NCBI GenBank assembly: GCA_048881705.1
Contig: JBHLSH010000001.1
Coordinates: 64,001-128,000 of the forward strand
Reading direction: 5' to 3'
DNA: 64,000 nucleotides
Origin: Candidatus Heimdallarchaeota archaeon
GTDB taxonomy: Archaea; Asgardarchaeota; Heimdallarchaeia; Hodarchaeales; Hodarchaeaceae
In this document: piece after piece, positions 6,466 to 64,000 of the stretch
How positions within the stretch are numbered: the stretch's first letter is position 1
Layout of the letters: every line of letters starts with the position of its first letter
Made by a program: the position numbers and the translations under genes
Notes under the pieces: model-generated
What the model saw: the letters and a program-made list of their open reading frames with translations, nothing else
Database searches by the model: none
What the model was told of the DNA's origin: nothing

Positions 6466-7743
6466 TCAGAGGGAAGACGTAAATCCCACCTCAAAGATAA
6501 CTTCGTAAAATTGGAGGCAAATGATACCGTTCCTAAGGTCAAGATTGATCTCCCTGGTCTGAGTCCAGATGATTAGCATTTCTACCACTTTTTCAGGAAT
6601 TATCGTGATTCGAATGCCTATCTGTGCTAAGGAAAGACGAGGAACCAAAATGGTTTCACTGAAATTCCCCCTTCCCACTATTTGAGACCCAAGTGTCTCA
6701 TTTAGTAGCTGATGGTAAAAATCAAAAGTGATACAGGTAAGATTATATCCCCAAAGAGGTTGCCCTTCAAATCCTAGGTTAACATCAAAGTAACCCCCGC
6801 TGATATTAATATTGTTTATCCCTAAAATGTGCAAGCTAGGAGTAAAATCATCCCAAAAAAACTTTGGACCATCCTGTACGGAAATATTGATGTTTTCGTG
6901 AGCGAATAAGAATTCCCCTTGAAACTTTCTAATACTTGCCTGTATTGTGCCATTGTTAAGTATTCGTTCTGTCAGCCAGGTTAACTCTGAGGCATTCGAA
7001 TGTAATAACAAAGAAACATTTGAACGTCCTGGGGGAATTGAAGTATTTTCAAAGTATGCAGTGCCAAAAGAACCAAACTCAGGAGAGGTCAATTGAAAAG
7101 AAGCAGAAGAGATATTCAACGTAACACCGTGAAAATTCCGAGCATGAACTAAAACGTGTAAGATATTGCCTGGGTATATCGGATAGATCTCTAGTATCGA
7201 TATAGATGGAAAGAAATCAACATCAATCCCAGATAACTCAATTTTATAAGGTGAGGTCAGTCCCCATTCCAAATGAATTTGACCTTGGATAATGATTGCT
7301 TCATCGCTGATTAAAACCCTCAGTAAAGACTCCAGATCGGGTACATCAAACATAAACGACAAATTTTCGACCTTAATACTCCCTTTGGGGAATATCAAGG
7401 ATTCTATGGTCGACCCCGTGGCAAGAATCTGAGCGACATTTCCTTCAGTTGAATCAGTTTGAATTGTACATGTTATCTTGTTTGCCCGAACAGAATAATC
7501 GAGTTCTTCTAGGAGCGTGAAAGATAAATCTGTGTAGACTGTATGATTCTCAATTCTTACAATCCTAAAATTCTCAAGGACAAATTTCGGAAACATACCG
7601 ACGGTTATGATCGTACTAAGAATACCGATCGCTATTATGGAGAATAAAACCAAGAAAATTCCCAAAGAAGCGGATAGAACGCGATGTTGACGCAAAACAG
7701 TGAGAATTCGTTTGCGTTTCCCCTCAAGATCAATCCTACTCAT
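6466..7743 (-). CDS. Single-TM protein with about three LEA_2-like beta-sandwich domains
   Basis: N-terminal TM anchor, then repeated LEA_2-like patterns (VHARNFHGVTLNISSASFQL...FGTAYFENTSIPPGRSNVSLLL; YNLTCITFDFY...VGRGNFSETILVP). Confidence 0.6.
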   Translation of the reverse strand: MSRIDLEGKRKRILTVLRQHRVLSASLGIFLVLFSIIAIGILSTIITVGMFPKFVLENFRIVRIENHTVYTDLSFTLLEELDYSVRANKITCTIQTDSTEGNVAQILATGSTIESLIFPKGSIKVENLSFMFDVPDLESLLRVLISDEAIIIQGQIHLEWGLTSPYKIELSGIDVDFFPSISILEIYPIYPGNILHVLVHARNFHGVTLNISSASFQLTSPEFGSFGTAYFENTSIPPGRSNVSLLLHSNASELTWLTERILNNGTIQASIRKFQGEFLFAHENINISVQDGPKFFWDDFTPSLHILGINNINISGGYFDVNLGFEGQPLWGYNLTCITFDFYHQLLNETLGSQIVGRGNFSETILVPRLSLAQIGIRITIIPEKVVEMLIIWTQTREINLDLRNGIICLQFYEVIFEVGFTSSL

Positions 7744-7966
7744 GGTTTAGCCAGCCTATACCTCAGTATTCTTGGTATTATGTCAATATTTGGCATTGGA
7801 TCCTATTTAAAATACAGAGCCATGTGGTTTGAATACTTTTGTTATCGTTTCCTTTCTATCAGGCGCAAAAGAGGAATTTATAAGCGAGTCTGTCTTTCCA
7901 CTTCCCCGCATCTAGACCCCCTTAGGTGTCTTTGGACTTACCCATGTTACGATGTGAGGATATAAG

Positions 7967-8764
7967 ATGAATAATGATTCGTCTAAACTTGTACTGAGGC
8001 ATCGTTCGGAAAAAAAACATGATCCAGATGCCACCATTTGCGAGTGTGTCGCTGATTTTCAGCCTGAATGGGTTGCAGTCGGCTTTCCGGGTCATGGATT
8101 GGTCGGTAATATAGCTGCAAAGCATATGATCCAAGAGCTGAACCTTGAGTGGATTGGTTCGATCAGGTCACCCCACATCCCTCCAGTAAGTGTGTTTATC
8201 GATGGAATCCTGACATATCCATATCGGATCTATGGCGATAAAGATCAGAAACTTATGGTAATGATCGGTGAAGCTCCATGCCCACCCCAAGCATATTACT
8301 TTCTTGCCCACGCACTCCTAGAATGGGCAATCGAAATAGGAACTAGACAGGTTATCTGTATGGATGGGTTTATTGATACACAAGGAAAGACCAGCACAGA
8401 TTCCGTTTATCTAGTGGCTGAACCCCAATTTTACAAGGAAGATCCCGAACTCATAGCTCATGAATTCCCCAAACCCCATACCGGCTTCATTTCGGGCCTT
8501 TCGGGAGCAATCATGAATGAAGCGCTATTAACTTCGATTTTAGGATATACATTTCTCATACCAGTAGCAGGTTCCTATCCTGATCCTGGTGGCGCTGCAA
8601 AATTGGTTCAGGCGATTGGCAAAGTCAAAAATATTGAGATTGATGTATCACGGCTTCTGAAAGATGCAGAGCAGATTCAGAAGTCGCTTATGGAGTTGGC
8701 AGACCGTAATCGTCAAATCACTCAAAGTGAGGGCCTAATCCCAAGTAAAGGATTATATGTCTAA
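7967..8764 (+). CDS. PAC2-family proteasome assembly chaperone (PbaA/B-like)
   Basis: VGFPGHGLVGNIAAKHMI, YPYRIY, GFISGLSGAIM, YPDPGGAAKLV, IDVSRLLKDAEQI are typical PAC2 motifs. Confidence 0.88.
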   Translation: MNNDSSKLVLRHRSEKKHDPDATICECVADFQPEWVAVGFPGHGLVGNIAAKHMIQELNLEWIGSIRSPHIPPVSVFIDGILTYPYRIYGDKDQKLMVMIGEAPCPPQAYYFLAHALLEWAIEIGTRQVICMDGFIDTQGKTSTDSVYLVAEPQFYKEDPELIAHEFPKPHTGFISGLSGAIMNEALLTSILGYTFLIPVAGSYPDPGGAAKLVQAIGKVKNIEIDVSRLLKDAEQIQKSLMELADRNRQITQSEGLIPSKGLYV

Positions 8765-59753: not shown

Positions 59754-60176
59754 GTGATTCTAGTGTCGAGTACGGGTGAAATGGCTCAAACGATCGCTCA
59801 AGATGCATTCAGAAAATGCCCTGCCTCCTTAGTGTTCAAAATTCGTGGAGGTAAAGGGAGTGTACTTGCCACGGTCTCAAATCTTTCTGAATTAATATCT
59901 ACATTACACGAAATCCCTCCCACGATTGTACATTTCCATGTCTTCCGGGAAACAATGTCGGGCCTGTTTGATGAACAATTAAATGGCCCTGTTGTAAGGT
60001 CAGACATCGCATTGTGGATAAACTACGTTCTGGGAGATGACGAGCTGTCACGAAGAGTGTGGGAAATTGGAAAACGTGAAAAAAACCCACGAGAATTAAA
60101 GAAAAAAGTGATTGAAACACTTAAGGAGCGCGAAAAAGAGCTTAGGATGGTATTGGAGAGATCTGTACGAAGATGA
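59754..60176 (+). CDS. DUF5752-like protein
   Basis: VSNLSELISTLHEIP...FHV...SDIALWINYVLGDDELS resembles the DUF5752 consensus as I recall it. Confidence 0.45.
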   Translation: MILVSSTGEMAQTIAQDAFRKCPASLVFKIRGGKGSVLATVSNLSELISTLHEIPPTIVHFHVFRETMSGLFDEQLNGPVVRSDIALWINYVLGDDELSRRVWEIGKREKNPRELKKKVIETLKEREKELRMVLERSVRR

Positions 60177-60227: not shown

Positions 60228-61496
60228 TTGACAGAAGATGATCCGATGTACCTTATTCGTCGCATATTTCGTGTTGATCCACGTATTGAGCTGAAAAAAG
60301 GACAAAAAGCCTTTGACCAGCGAAATTTCAAATCAGCTCTCAAATCATTTGAAAAGGCCTTCAAACGGCTAAGTAACGTTGATATGCAGATAATGGCACT
60401 GGATAACGCTGCGCTTTGTGCAGAAAAGGCTTCCCTGTTTGAGAAGGCCACAGAACTATATTATCAATTAATTCTTCTAAAATTATCCCATAAAACTACA
60501 AAGCCATCTAGATTGGTTATGTCGGACATTAACCGTGCCATGGCGGTAGCCAGATTAAGTCCAAAACCCATCATTCCCATTTCCAAGTTTTTGTTGATGA
60601 AATTCTTGATATTCCTGGGCGAGAACGACCTTGATAAGCTAATCCCGTTTTATGAAAAGCTGAATCACGAGGTAAACGATGAATATAAGGCGGCTATTGA
60701 CACCACTTGGGAACTAATTCACACACAAGATACGTATGTACAGAAAAAACCCCTGCCTGAAATAGATTTGCCTAGGGAGTTTTTATCTGTGAGGCAGGAA
60801 GCAGAGCATTTTATGCAACGCCTTTCCCTGTGCCAGGTAACGTCCCTTACGCTTGATAACTCAAAATCTCTTGAAAAAGGCACGCCTTTCTCAATTTCCG
60901 GATCTTTTACCGTACACGCTGAACTAGCAATCGTATCCATTAGCCTGAGAATTGGCTCACACGGAAGAATAGTATCGTCAAACTTACCACAACTACCCAT
61001 TACCATGACAGAAGGCGCAAGCCAAATGGTACATTATTCATTGATTCCTAATTTACCGGGCAAATGGACCATAGGCCCATTAACTGTCGTTTACAGAATC
61101 CCCGCTGACCATAATACGAGCCAGGAGTATTCTGTGGTCTCAAAAACCCTAATCGCCTCCATCAAGGAAGCACCCCCTGCATTACAACTCTCGATGGTCT
61201 ATGAAACCATGGAAGAAGATCATGAATACACGATTACTATTAGTGCGGAAAACATAGGTAAAACTAGTTTACAGGATCTTAAAATTATTTTGGAAATTCC
61301 AGATGGAGTTGAATTGGGAACCGGTACAGAGCAGAAAACCATTGGTATCTTAGGCCAAGGAGAAGTCTTTTCTTATGAATTAAAGGTACAGTTCTCAATG
61401 GACCGAACGCATTTCGAAGGACATATCCTTAAAGCTGCAGGATATATCCAGAATAAACGCTTAGCTAAATGCTCTCTTAAGATTGGCGGTAGTTGA
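60228..61496 (+). CDS. TPR/alpha-solenoid plus two Ig-like (BatD/CARDB-like) domains
   Basis: TPR-like GQKAFDQRNFKSALKSFEKAF; Ig-like PGKWTIGPLTVVY and ISAENIGKTSLQDLKI...LGQGEVFSY. Confidence 0.75.
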   Translation: MTEDDPMYLIRRIFRVDPRIELKKGQKAFDQRNFKSALKSFEKAFKRLSNVDMQIMALDNAALCAEKASLFEKATELYYQLILLKLSHKTTKPSRLVMSDINRAMAVARLSPKPIIPISKFLLMKFLIFLGENDLDKLIPFYEKLNHEVNDEYKAAIDTTWELIHTQDTYVQKKPLPEIDLPREFLSVRQEAEHFMQRLSLCQVTSLTLDNSKSLEKGTPFSISGSFTVHAELAIVSISLRIGSHGRIVSSNLPQLPITMTEGASQMVHYSLIPNLPGKWTIGPLTVVYRIPADHNTSQEYSVVSKTLIASIKEAPPALQLSMVYETMEEDHEYTITISAENIGKTSLQDLKIILEIPDGVELGTGTEQKTIGILGQGEVFSYELKVQFSMDRTHFEGHILKAAGYIQNKRLAKCSLKIGGS

Positions 61497-61544: not shown

Positions 61545-61829
61545 TTACTTAAGCCGCGTTATAACCATTAATTCCCCCTTCAACTGCTCTATCGTAGCCC
61601 TCGGAAGGTGGGGTGTGACAGAATAGAGCGTTTGTCTCATATCATTTAAACAGGGATATTTTCTGACATATTCCTGATCAAGTAGCAATTTTAACGCATA
61701 CCTGACAGACCGCGTCGAGCACGAGACTTTTTTGACGATTTCTTTTGAGCTCAAAGGACCTTCGTTAATGATGATACTGTAGACTTCTTTGGCCGATCGT
61801 GGTAAATTGGCTAAAACCGTCTCCGACAC
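61545..61829 (-). CDS. Small winged-helix regulator, paralog of 32863-33141
   Basis: LPRSAKEVYSIIINEGPLSSKEI...STRSVRYALKLL...DMRQTLY. Confidence 0.85.
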   Translation of the reverse strand: MSETVLANLPRSAKEVYSIIINEGPLSSKEIVKKVSCSTRSVRYALKLLLDQEYVRKYPCLNDMRQTLYSVTPHLPRATIEQLKGELMVITRLK

Positions 61830-61957: not shown

Positions 61958-64000
61958 CTAAGTTGGTCGCAATCCAAGTCGCGTAATAAATGTGCTGTAA
62001 TACGCGTAGCAATCAATCGACTCTTTCTCTCCTAGTGTCACAGAAGAATGCACAATACGGTTCCTTATGTTTCGGTAATGTATAATCTTTTTGCTACTAG
62101 GTAGATCATATCCATGCGTTCTGAGTTCTTCAACCTGCATTGTAAAATCTGGCTTAGATAGGAGGTTCAGCGAGACAATCTGCTGGTAACGGACAAAAAG
62201 GAGGTTTTTGACCGCTGTGTCAGCTTTTATTACAAAAAGCTCGTAGTTTTTTTCCTTAAAGGCCCGCTTGGCTTGATTCCATAATACCCGGACATAATTG
62301 ATATTCTTGATTATTTGATCAAGATCTAATTGCTGAACAGGTTCTATTCCAGAATCGGAAGCTCGCTGGTAGTTTTGTATAACATAAGAGAGGCGATTAT
62401 TGAGCTGATTATATGCAAAAATTGGAGACACATTCACGAATAGCACAGGAATTACCAGAATGGTCAGGGGGAGAATCAGAACAAGCAGAAGATTTGTAAT
62501 TCCGTCTATATAGAAGGGGAGGAAATTCTGAGAGAGAAACAGATAGCTTAGAAGATTTAGACTCGTATAAAGGATCGCGCCTATAAAAAAATAGATTAGC
62601 CACTCCACTTTGCGGCGTAACCGTCTGGAAAATACCAAGGTTTCTTCTTCAGTTGATTCAACACAACTAATCAGAGCATAGGTGGATACAGGAATACTCG
62701 CGACTCTGACTAGGATAGAATCTTCCGGAACTTCGTCTAGTTTATATATTCCTCTAAAACTATCTTTGAGCAGTTTATAGGTTTCCTTTCGGTGTGCTGG
62801 AACGGACCATTGGTTGACCCGAAACCATTTTCCTTTAATATCCAGGTAGATCAGGTAGCCCGGGAGTGCTACTAGGGTACTGATTATCAAGAGAAGTCCA
62901 GAGACATCCCAAACGAAAGGACGGGGTGGTTGAATCTCTAAATGAATATAAAACACTCCTATGGCATTATCTTGGGGAGATACAACAAGATAATAGGTTC
63001 CTATATCGAGTAACAGTGTGTTTGTTATATTTATTTCGCCATCACGATCCTGCTGTTCTTCAGCTGCCCTAAATATCGGATTTTGCCCCCCTTCAGCAAA
63101 AATTTCGACAATTGCCAAATCAAGAACTTCTGATGTGGTACGATTATCTTCAAATAGCCAAATAAATATCCCCGTCCGACTATGATTCACCTGAAACGCA
63201 AAATAGTATTCCTTGGCGGTCCACTCCTGATTAATTCTCACAGGTGTTGTATGGTTATCCTGTAGCTTCCCTGCCGTTTGAAAGCTATATAAAGCCGGCG
63301 CCGCGTTAAAAGAAATATTGTACAATCCTATCTGGGAGGTCTCTTGGTTATGTTCGATTTCAATGATGTAAGTGGCTTGAGTTCCAGCATTCCAAGAAAA
63401 GTTATACCCCCCACGAATTTCCGTAAACGGGAGAACAGGGTTTTGGAGAAAATTTTCTCTATATATTCCCAATCGCGCCTTAAAAAGCACACTTGAGTCA
63501 ACTTCCTTTAAAACTAGGGTTCCATTCTGGTTTTTATTAAGAAAGATTTTCCAATAATGAATTTCATGGGGAATCGTGAAATTAGCCATCCATGGGATTG
63601 GTTCCACTTCAAGGGCCTTATCCTCACTATACGAAACCATTGGAATGGAGACCAAGATTTCGTAGGTCGCATTCATGTCTCTAACAATTCGTGTATCATT
63701 AACTTGGAGGATCCAATCCCCTGAGATTGGGGTAGTGAATGATCCCAAATAGGGAGAAAATCCACTGGAGTCGCTACGGATATGATTGAAGGATACCCCG
63801 TCAGAGGTGTAAAGCCCTACCGTGAATTCAGATTTCGAATATGGAGCTTTTGGATCCACAGAAAAATAGATTACCTGTTCTATAGGGATGTTTTCAATTC
63901 TCCAGTTATGTGACATTGAAATATTCGAAAACACTCCGATTTGAGGAATTCCGTGTGTCAAAATGACTTGATTGGGAAAATCATTCGATTCTTCTTCAGC
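61958..64000 (-). CDS. Receptor-like membrane protein: extracellular PPC-like beta repeats, three TM helices, C-terminal HEPN domain (5' end outside window)
   Basis: Frame stays open to base 64000 (AEEESNDFPNQVILTHG...). About three beta-sandwich repeats (GDWILQV, ATYIIEI, GTYYLVV); TMs; HEPN helices with RNIRNRIVH. Confidence 0.8.
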   Translation of the reverse strand, partial: AEEESNDFPNQVILTHGIPQIGVFSNISMSHNWRIENIPIEQVIYFSVDPKAPYSKSEFTVGLYTSDGVSFNHIRSDSSGFSPYLGSFTTPISGDWILQVNDTRIVRDMNATYEILVSIPMVSYSEDKALEVEPIPWMANFTIPHEIHYWKIFLNKNQNGTLVLKEVDSSVLFKARLGIYRENFLQNPVLPFTEIRGGYNFSWNAGTQATYIIEIEHNQETSQIGLYNISFNAAPALYSFQTAGKLQDNHTTPVRINQEWTAKEYYFAFQVNHSRTGIFIWLFEDNRTTSEVLDLAIVEIFAEGGQNPIFRAAEEQQDRDGEINITNTLLLDIGTYYLVVSPQDNAIGVFYIHLEIQPPRPFVWDVSGLLLIISTLVALPGYLIYLDIKGKWFRVNQWSVPAHRKETYKLLKDSFRGIYKLDEVPEDSILVRVASIPVSTYALISCVESTEEETLVFSRRLRRKVEWLIYFFIGAILYTSLNLLSYLFLSQNFLPFYIDGITNLLLVLILPLTILVIPVLFVNVSPIFAYNQLNNRLSYVIQNYQRASDSGIEPVQQLDLDQIIKNINYVRVLWNQAKRAFKEKNYELFVIKADTAVKNLLFVRYQQIVSLNLLSKPDFTMQVEELRTHGYDLPSSKKIIHYRNIRNRIVHSSVTLGEKESIDCYAYYSTFITRLGLRPT

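Follow-up and report, generated by a model that had tools for sequence, protein, structure and literature searches.

Candidatus Heimdallarchaeota contig JBHLSH010000001.1 was analyzed over a window of 64,000 nucleotides (nt; G000:C1:64001-128000), at the end of which lies a minus-strand open reading frame with its stop codon at window positions 61958-61960 and its frame open to the window end. A preliminary description of this reading frame, made from the sequence alone, had proposed a receptor-like membrane protein with a cytoplasmic HEPN ribonuclease (RNase) motif and an Ire1-like logic. Past the window end (contig stretch L002), the frame stays open as far as a GTG at window-equivalent position 64150, 150 nt beyond the window (730 amino acids, P0002); four codons after the GTG, an ATG at 64138, 138 nt past the window end, yields the 726-amino-acid database version (P0003). 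The ATG at 64138 is more likely to be the start codon than the GTG at 64150. Residue numbers throughout follow P0002. Residues 1-50 fall outside the window; a basic stretch is followed there by a hydrophobic segment, serving as either signal peptide or anchor, and then by ISA/EEE. The preliminary description had covered the gene only up to the window end; recovered in full, it encodes 726 to 730 residues with a signal peptide at the N terminus. The gene and its transmembrane (TM), extracellular, and cytoplasmic parts are listed below by window coordinate (Z, structural alignment score; rmsd, root mean square deviation).

61958..64000, on to ~64138 (ATG) or 64150 (GTG), minus strand: gene for the receptor-like HEPN membrane protein, from the open reading frame and the contig
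63641..63976, minus strand: ectodomain D1 (residues 59-170), a beta-sandwich with the DeCLIC N-terminal domain (Z 12.0) and PliG (Z 10.6) as nearest folds
63296..63604, minus strand: ectodomain D2 (residues 183-285), a GOLD-like beta-sandwich (p24 GOLD, Z 11.4, rmsd 2.2, 91 aligned)
62930..63295, minus strand: ectodomain D3 (residues 286-407), PPC/collagen-binding-like (ColG collagen-binding domain, Z 14.3, rmsd 1.9, 105 aligned, 18% identity)
62837..62905, minus strand: TM1 (residues 416-438), with a K/R-rich stretch next to it on the cytoplasmic side, from sequence indicators and the model
62618..62815, minus strand: cytoplasmic juxtamembrane alpha/beta domain of 66 amino acids (residues 446-511, beta-alpha-beta4), from the model
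62534..62611, minus strand: TM2 (residues 514-539), with a near-invariant polar N532, from the alignment and the model
62357..62500, minus strand: TM3 and its cytoplasmic helical extension (residues 551-598), from the alignment and the model
61976..62323, minus strand: HEPN domain (residues 610-725; H1 610-632, H2 636-659, an insert, H3 686-702, H4 708-725), from the models
62207..62221, minus strand: D644-x3-K648 in helix 2, counterpart of the HEPN Ex3[KR], from the alignment and the model
62048..62065, minus strand: RNxxxH motif (R696 N697 R I V H701) at the end of core helix 3, from the model and the alignment

An AlphaFold2 model of the full-length protein, built on 32 sequences, had a mean predicted local distance difference test score (pLDDT) of 84.5. 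It consisted of approximately 350 amino acids of beta-sandwich domains (residues 59-407), TM1, an alpha/beta domain, a TM2-TM3 hairpin, and a five-helix C-terminal domain. Every element that the preliminary description had listed was present in this model, confirming the observation of a receptor-like protein with a HEPN motif. The full layout was kept in 19 homologues at 47-76% identity and in 13 more at 24-37%, and R696, N697, H701, and D644 were invariant in 32/32 of these full-length homologues, down to 24% overall identity. The motif arginine and histidine are therefore conserved, as had been expected of them, and the asparagine with them. Because all 32 homologues keep the whole layout with R696, N697, and H701 unchanged, the reading frame is not a chance one. 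GC content across the region was even (0.39-0.43), and composition was unremarkable.

As set out in PMC3710099, helix 3 of HEPN domains ends in an Rx4-6H motif whose arginine is directly followed by a polar residue (N, D, or H), and helix 2 has a conserved acidic residue, typically within Ex3[KR]; inserts between helices 2 and 3 are frequent. The C-terminal domain of the receptor-like protein has the HEPN fold in the models, an Rx4-6H at the end of helix 3 with the polar residue N697, and the acidic residue of helix 2. The RNRIVH that had been placed at window positions 62048-62065 is exact and corresponds to residues 696-701. The helix-2 acidic residue of the family is D, where HEPN domains typically have E; K648 was at least 90% conserved, and R693 and N694 were invariant in the 19 close homologues. 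The invariant arginines of the domain are R621, R654, R677, R696, R724, and R728. Between H2 and H3 lies an insert of 26 residues that carries a short helix (669-678). A model of the domain by itself reached a pLDDT of 84.7, and against 48,161 representative chains its top match was AF0298 (2hsb; Z 11.5, rmsd 2.8, 118 of 126 aligned), with 4nqf, the sacsin HEPN domain, AbiA, TT1696, Csm6, HI0074, and HepT as further top neighbors. In a second-look structural alignment, the first 32 rows (Z 11.5 to 8.3) all belonged to the HEPN superfamily, including AF0298, Csm6, sacsin HEPN, AbiA, HepT toxins, and AbiV. AF0298 was also matched by the C-terminal domain as it stands within the full-length model (Z 12.2). 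In a Foldseek search with the C-terminal model, HEPN proteins headed the list (best E 0.06, none reaching 0.001).

Several results weigh against this assignment. For helical bundles, a Z below ~13 can reflect a common arrangement of helices, as the alignment tool itself warns; since bundles reach such scores easily, we placed the weight on the uniformity of the list and on the motif. Pfam and NCBIfam scans of the reference protein and of its C-terminal 131 amino acids returned no family (V-set at E 0.06 and PDZ_6 at E 0.19 are chance matches), and all Pfam profile evidence for HEPN sits below curated thresholds. When the 32 members were scanned singly, sub-threshold matches were obtained to HEPN_RiboL-PSP (22/32), DUF4145 (7; best E 6.6e-5), HEPN_Cthe2314 (6), and HEPN (3), and a few members also matched Ymh, Apea, or HepT below threshold. 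For DUF4145 (PF13643), the gathering threshold of 23.1 bits was not reached; the best relative, P0051, scored 21.8 bits, and the reference protein had no match. Comparison by hhalign with three DUF4145 proteins of Asgard genomes gave an E of 1.7e-4 and a probability of 49.5%, with the motifs in register, whereas comparison with five Asgard RiboL-PSP-HEPN proteins gave no support (probability 2%, E 0.025), although the motif was aligned. Searches of PDB sequences by hmmsearch (alignments A2 and A4) returned chance matches alone (SAP30, a desaturase, and TA1238; E 0.1 or worse). On the basis of fold, motif position, and weak profile signal, the C-terminal domain is nevertheless a HEPN domain, as the preliminary description had held, and forms its own divergent family inside the HEPN superfamily, separate from all curated families.

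Topology was judged by two independent indicators, N-x-S/T sequons and charge, over the 32-sequence alignment. Sequons occurred at 3.1 per 100 amino acids in the ectodomain compared to 0.8 and 0.35 in the two predicted cytoplasmic parts. The ectodomain of the reference protein has 11 sequons, ~3-fold the expectation from composition, and 7 sites (N151, N190, N250, N278, N299, N322, and N374) are conserved in at least 60% of sequences; its 231 predicted cytoplasmic residues have none. The ectodomain carries a net charge of -19; the loop domain (+4) and the C-terminal part (+7.6) are net positive, and the short TM2-TM3 loop is close to neutral (~0). As predicted from these indicators, the order is signal peptide, outside, TM1, inside, TM2, outside, TM3, inside, and the three ectodomains are probably N-glycosylated, judging by their sequons. 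The asymmetry of sequons together with the charge bias places the HEPN domain in the cytoplasm, which bears out the location first proposed for it. Thus, of the outcomes that the preliminary description had named as counting against it, neither an outside location nor an unconserved motif was found, and the profile signal, below curated thresholds, was to HEPN families.

Within the ectodomain, one relative had a Pfam PPC match below threshold. D1 and D2 together resembled the tandem ectodomain of the SID-1 family (Z 10.6), a loose match (rmsd 5.3) that we read as one between generic tandem jelly-rolls. Two proteins of 429 and 430 amino acids from short metagenome contigs (P0022 and P0023; 40-43% identity) have the same three-domain ectodomain, a single TM helix, and a short basic tail, with no loop domain, hairpin, or HEPN domain; the ectodomain thus occurs in simply anchored surface proteins as well. 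On the membrane side, the hydrophobic stretch 479-497 was modeled as beta strands of the loop domain rather than as a membrane helix. TM2 and TM3 are joined by an outer loop of 11 residues (540-550) with a conserved FLP, and a low-confidence linker of ~10 residues (599-609) precedes the HEPN domain. Model residues 444-599 gave KA1-like matches (Chk1 KA1, Z 11.6, 91 aligned; MARK, the AMPK alpha C-terminal domain, and METTL16 VCR; Z 9 to 11.6 overall), but this range takes in both TM helices and the helix after TM3, and helix-grip folds score nearly equally. Elsewhere in the class, the TM1-alpha/beta-TM2-TM3 module was found in no protein beyond the orthologues, with just marginal partial matches (E 9e-4 to 0.01).

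A word-indexed search returned 20 relatives, 17 of them with 674 to 726 amino acids at 48-75% identity and three shorter, all of them "hypothetical proteins" of Hodarchaeales, Heimdallarchaeota, or Asgard metagenome-assembled genomes; the order is given as Hodarchaeales after the names on these homologue records. An exhaustive search of 1.84 billion representatives with a profile of the C-terminal domain returned just 32 proteins, most of them of 680 to 775 amino acids with the domain at the extreme C terminus. The domain was present in 20/21 other genomes of the same genus-level group, the single genome missing it being 80% complete, and in 2/2 genomes of the sister family, hence in 22/23 other genomes of the order. 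In the remaining families of the class, it was found in 0 genomes; in one distant family of the phylum, it was present in 4/5 genomes, there as proteins of ~340 amino acids. No second copy of the ectodomain or of the HEPN domain was found in the protein's own genome, and the gene is single copy. Mean pairwise identity reached 60% in the HEPN domain; it lay at 27-36% in each ectodomain, in the TM segments, and in the loop domain and fell to 22% in the linker. A lineage-specific core function fits this gene better than mobile defense, and the order-wide single-copy inheritance and the slow evolution of the HEPN domain argue for a core cellular role rather than a mobile abortive-infection gene.

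Close relatives share a set of neighboring genes: upstream, DnaJ, a 365-amino-acid radical-SAM-like gene, an archaeosine-synthase-like gene (ArcS), a 467-amino-acid gene, and a divergent C1orf109-like gene; further downstream, a DUF5752 gene. This synteny dissolves in the sister family, and we take the shared neighborhood as collinearity rather than an operon. Immediately downstream lies one further small gene.

61545..61829, minus strand: MarR/TrmB-like winged-helix gene, 94 amino acids, 128 bp downstream of the HEPN gene, from the sequence

In one orthologous locus, where the receptor is 51% identical, the winged-helix protein is 65% identical. Such a gene was found at the downstream position in 6/12 distinct other orthologous loci and is therefore an optional partner at most. 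No defense genes adjoined the receptor gene in the loci examined. In PADLOC-DB 2.0, the reference domain had no match, and a few relatives had weak matches (E 6e-5 to 0.04), mostly to HEPN-bearing models and none significant.

The same HEPN subfamily was also found behind other front ends, namely leucine-rich repeats (LRR; P0049), zinc ribbons (P0047), and a bare TM anchor (P0051), and so serves as an output module. P0049, a 419-amino-acid protein from an ENA metagenome contig of 2188 nt, combines LRR_8 (E 6e-30) with the HEPN subfamily and an intact RNxxxH, a soluble sensor-plus-HEPN layout. Proteins of the P0053/P0060 cluster (333 amino acids, labeled Lokiarchaeota; G304-G308) combine this C-terminal domain with a zinc ribbon and several TM helices. 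The genomic contexts of P0051 and P0054 held nothing informative.

Taken together, we are moderately confident that the gene encodes a lineage-specific core membrane protein of Hodarchaeales with probably glycosylated ectodomains outside the cell and a canonical cytoplasmic HEPN domain with an intact motif, which would act as an RNase set by the state of the ectodomain or membrane. The gene, its architecture, the topology indicators, the fold, the motif, and the phyletic pattern are observations; by analogy with other HEPN proteins, we infer RNase activity, activation by dimerization, gating from outside, and an RNA substrate. In the mechanism that we propose, a signal peptide would lead three probably N-glycosylated beta-sandwich domains to the outside of the cell, TM1 would be followed by the small alpha/beta domain in the cytoplasm, and the TM2-TM3 hairpin would return the chain to the cytoplasm, where TM3 is predicted to extend as a helix. 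A flexible linker of ~10 residues would then carry the canonical HEPN domain, with D644 and R696-N697-x3-H701 intact. This tail may be an endoribonuclease that works without metal and requires two adjacent copies, as do other HEPN enzymes with the motif. Tail pairing would depend on the condition of the ectodomain or membrane module, as altered by a ligand, cell contact, or envelope or glycoprotein stress, and would switch on cleavage of RNA near the membrane. Because activity should need two tails together, a shift in ectodomain or in TM and juxtamembrane pairing could gate it. Homodimer prediction with two copies of the HEPN domain (alignment A2) scored 0.37, 0.56, and 0.33, on either side of the 0.42 mark, and controls scored 0.00; this was counted neither way on pairing.

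Beyond the sub-threshold profiles, other observations pull the other way. In P0053 and P0060, the RNxxxH is degraded to R..E....K, and in P0047 the histidine is replaced. P0053/P0060 is probably a noncatalytic membrane version of the domain, judging by these substitutions, and such distant Asgard relatives with a degraded R/N/H motif indicate that the domain can persist without catalysis. No conserved partner gene or target was visible in the orthologous loci checked, and in the sister family the synteny is partly (G079) or wholly (G078) replaced.

We argue for a core role such as envelope or secretory stress or contact signaling. A more specific version, a one-protein surface-to-RNA pathway, is unlikely: the ectodomain would report stress on the envelope or on secretory glycoproteins, or else the touch of a partner cell, and the tethered HEPN RNase would cut RNAs at the membrane, e.g., mRNAs on membrane-bound ribosomes, as a counterpart of Ire1-dependent RNA decay with an independent origin and no kinase.

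The comparison with Ire1 and RNase L, whose KEN domain is a HEPN derivative, holds for this logic. Each has a sensor on one side, a cytoplasmic HEPN-type RNase, and activation by self-association, with sensing, cleavage, and self-association presumed for the receptor, and the Ire1 chain crosses the membrane as the receptor does. In contrast, Ire1 and RNase L have a kinase or pseudokinase just N-terminal to the RNase, whereas no kinase family was matched in the receptor at E up to 10, and the 66-amino-acid alpha/beta domain and TM helices stand in its place. The HEPN core of KEN is also circularly permuted, with the helix-1 equivalent at the C terminus, whereas the helix order of the receptor is canonical, with the acidic residue in the second helix and the motif in the last but one. 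KEN, Ire1, and RNase L structures were not among the listed structural neighbors, which is an absence only. Therefore, the Ire1 likeness is an analogy, with no sequence relation beyond the superfamily; the label "Ire1-like" from the preliminary description stands as a statement of logic only, the kinase not being found and the HEPN core being unpermuted.

Other known families resemble the receptor in part. To the DUF4145-like and RiboL-PSP-HEPN families (Pfam clan CL0291), the receptor family gives weak matches with the motif aligned, none of its members reaching a curated threshold. Table 1 of PMC3710099 gives DUF4145 fused to a zinc ribbon, TM, and SH3 in Firmicutes, and a fusion of a three-domain glycosylated ectodomain with three TM helices is not among the architectures given there for these two families. 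The eukaryotic ERMARD/C6orf70 (DUF4209) is described in the same paper as a predicted active HEPN domain tethered by one TM segment, with no beta-sandwich ectodomain. Like the receptor, it has a predicted catalytic HEPN domain on a membrane, but the domain order and ectodomain differ, and the receptor family had no Pfam DUF4209 match at E up to 10. The best structural neighbors, HepT/MNT toxins, Csm6/Csx1, AbiV, and AbiA (Z 8.3 to 10.5), all have Rx4-6H chemistry; these are soluble proteins of toxin-antitoxin, CRISPR, and abortive-infection systems with partner genes and a patchy distribution, whereas the receptor is an integral membrane protein, single copy and order-wide, with no conserved partner.

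The preliminary description had proposed a virus- or contact-triggered abortive-infection or defense role; in such an effector, the ectodomain would sense a virion or foreign cell and the HEPN tail would cut RNA and shut down the host. HEPN RNases are typical defense effectors (PMC3710099), the subfamily shows a modular sensor-effector pattern (LRR in P0049, zinc ribbons in P0047, and a TM anchor in P0051), and the weak PADLOC matches are to HEPN-bearing defense models. However, those matches are not significant and do not include the reference protein, no defense genes adjoin, and there is no compositional island. Moreover, the single-copy gene occurs in 22/23 other genomes of the order and keeps a syntenic position among close relatives, and no part of the protein is as conserved as the HEPN domain, which is thus not fast evolving. 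We therefore consider a defense role quite unlikely, and less likely than had been proposed. The earlier interpretation as a whole thus held for the architecture, the inside position and HEPN identity of the C-terminal domain, and the R/N/H conservation, whereas abortive defense is less likely than it supposed and the Ire1 likeness is one of logic only.

Equally doubtful is a HEPN domain that serves as a nonnuclease adaptor, binding nucleotide, RNA, or protein and anchoring something to the membrane or reporting the state of a surface or adhesion protein. Noncatalytic HEPN domains exist, such as those of sacsin and the substrate-binding domains of nucleotidyltransferases (PMC3710099); another Asgard family retains relatives whose motif is degraded, and the ectodomain is similar to modules that serve in binding, such as GOLD and the collagen-binding PPC domain. 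Nevertheless, HEPN domains that keep the motif are expected to be RNases (PMC3710099), and the retention of D644, R696, N697, and H701 in all 32 full-length homologues, down to 24% overall identity, speaks against this reading. Finally, it is very improbable that the protein is a toxin tethered to the membrane and matched, much as in toxin-antitoxin systems, by its small DNA-binding neighbor (MarR-like, or a CopG ribbon-helix-helix [RHH] protein in one sister-family genome) as antitoxin or regulator: the same-strand winged-helix gene 128 bp downstream and its 65%-identical counterpart beside the 51%-identical orthologue would suit it, as would the RHH gene after the orthologue in G078, but about half of the loci lack the winged-helix gene at this position, the RHH gene lies on the other strand, and known HEPN toxins pair with MNT nucleotidyltransferases, of which there are none nearby.

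HEPN RNases are known mainly as soluble defense and toxin modules and, in eukaryotes, also as the output of Ire1 and RNase L. Hodarchaeales are among the closest archaeal relatives of eukaryotes and the lineage most discussed as their sister. The receptor, a probably glycosylated surface protein, is single copy across the order, and its best-conserved part is an intact HEPN domain. If active and controlled from outside, it would link the surface to RNA by a minimal path across the membrane that involves neither a kinase nor a second messenger and, if so, would be a concrete archaeal case for comparison with the origin of membrane-coupled RNA decay. Judging by titles and term counts, no paper describing the protein was found in the literature on HEPN together with Asgard and transmembrane, or on HEPN together with either Heimdallarchaeia or Hodarchaeales. 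The combination of HEPN and receptor and its phyletic pattern were not met in the literature searched; membrane-linked HEPN proteins as such have been predicted before, in the form of DUF4145 with TM and of C6orf70/ERMARD, the examples given in PMC3710099. Because Hodarchaeales strains have now been cultured and glycoproteomic data are available for them (10.1101/2025.02.26.640444), the claims about topology and activity are directly testable.

Further genes lie near the receptor gene. The divergent upstream neighbor (L002:3378-4010, plus strand, 377 to 1009 nt past the window end) encodes 210 amino acids with a match to Pfam CA109-like (ribosome biogenesis protein C1orf109-like; 34.8 bits versus a threshold of 27; E 1.9e-8). 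Its counterparts in two closed Heimdall-group genomes are assigned to this family too, and the protein would be related, on the archaeal side, to a eukaryotic 60S-maturation cofactor. Downstream, on the plus strand, window positions 59754-60176 encode a DUF5752 protein (E 1e-10) that is conserved near the orthologues in close relatives, and positions 60228-61496 encode a protein of 422 amino acids that is likewise kept there and whose C-terminal half is weakly like a BatD/NEW3 beta-sandwich. Further upstream, L002:5679-7598 and 7600-8706 (both plus strand) are, by position, an archaeosine-synthase-like gene (DUF5591, TGT_C2, and PUA) and the adjacent radical-SAM-like gene; the family matches come from the counterpart loci (L003:1475-3409 and L027:3542-5539). 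Even in one genome of the sister family, these two genes remain close to the receptor gene.

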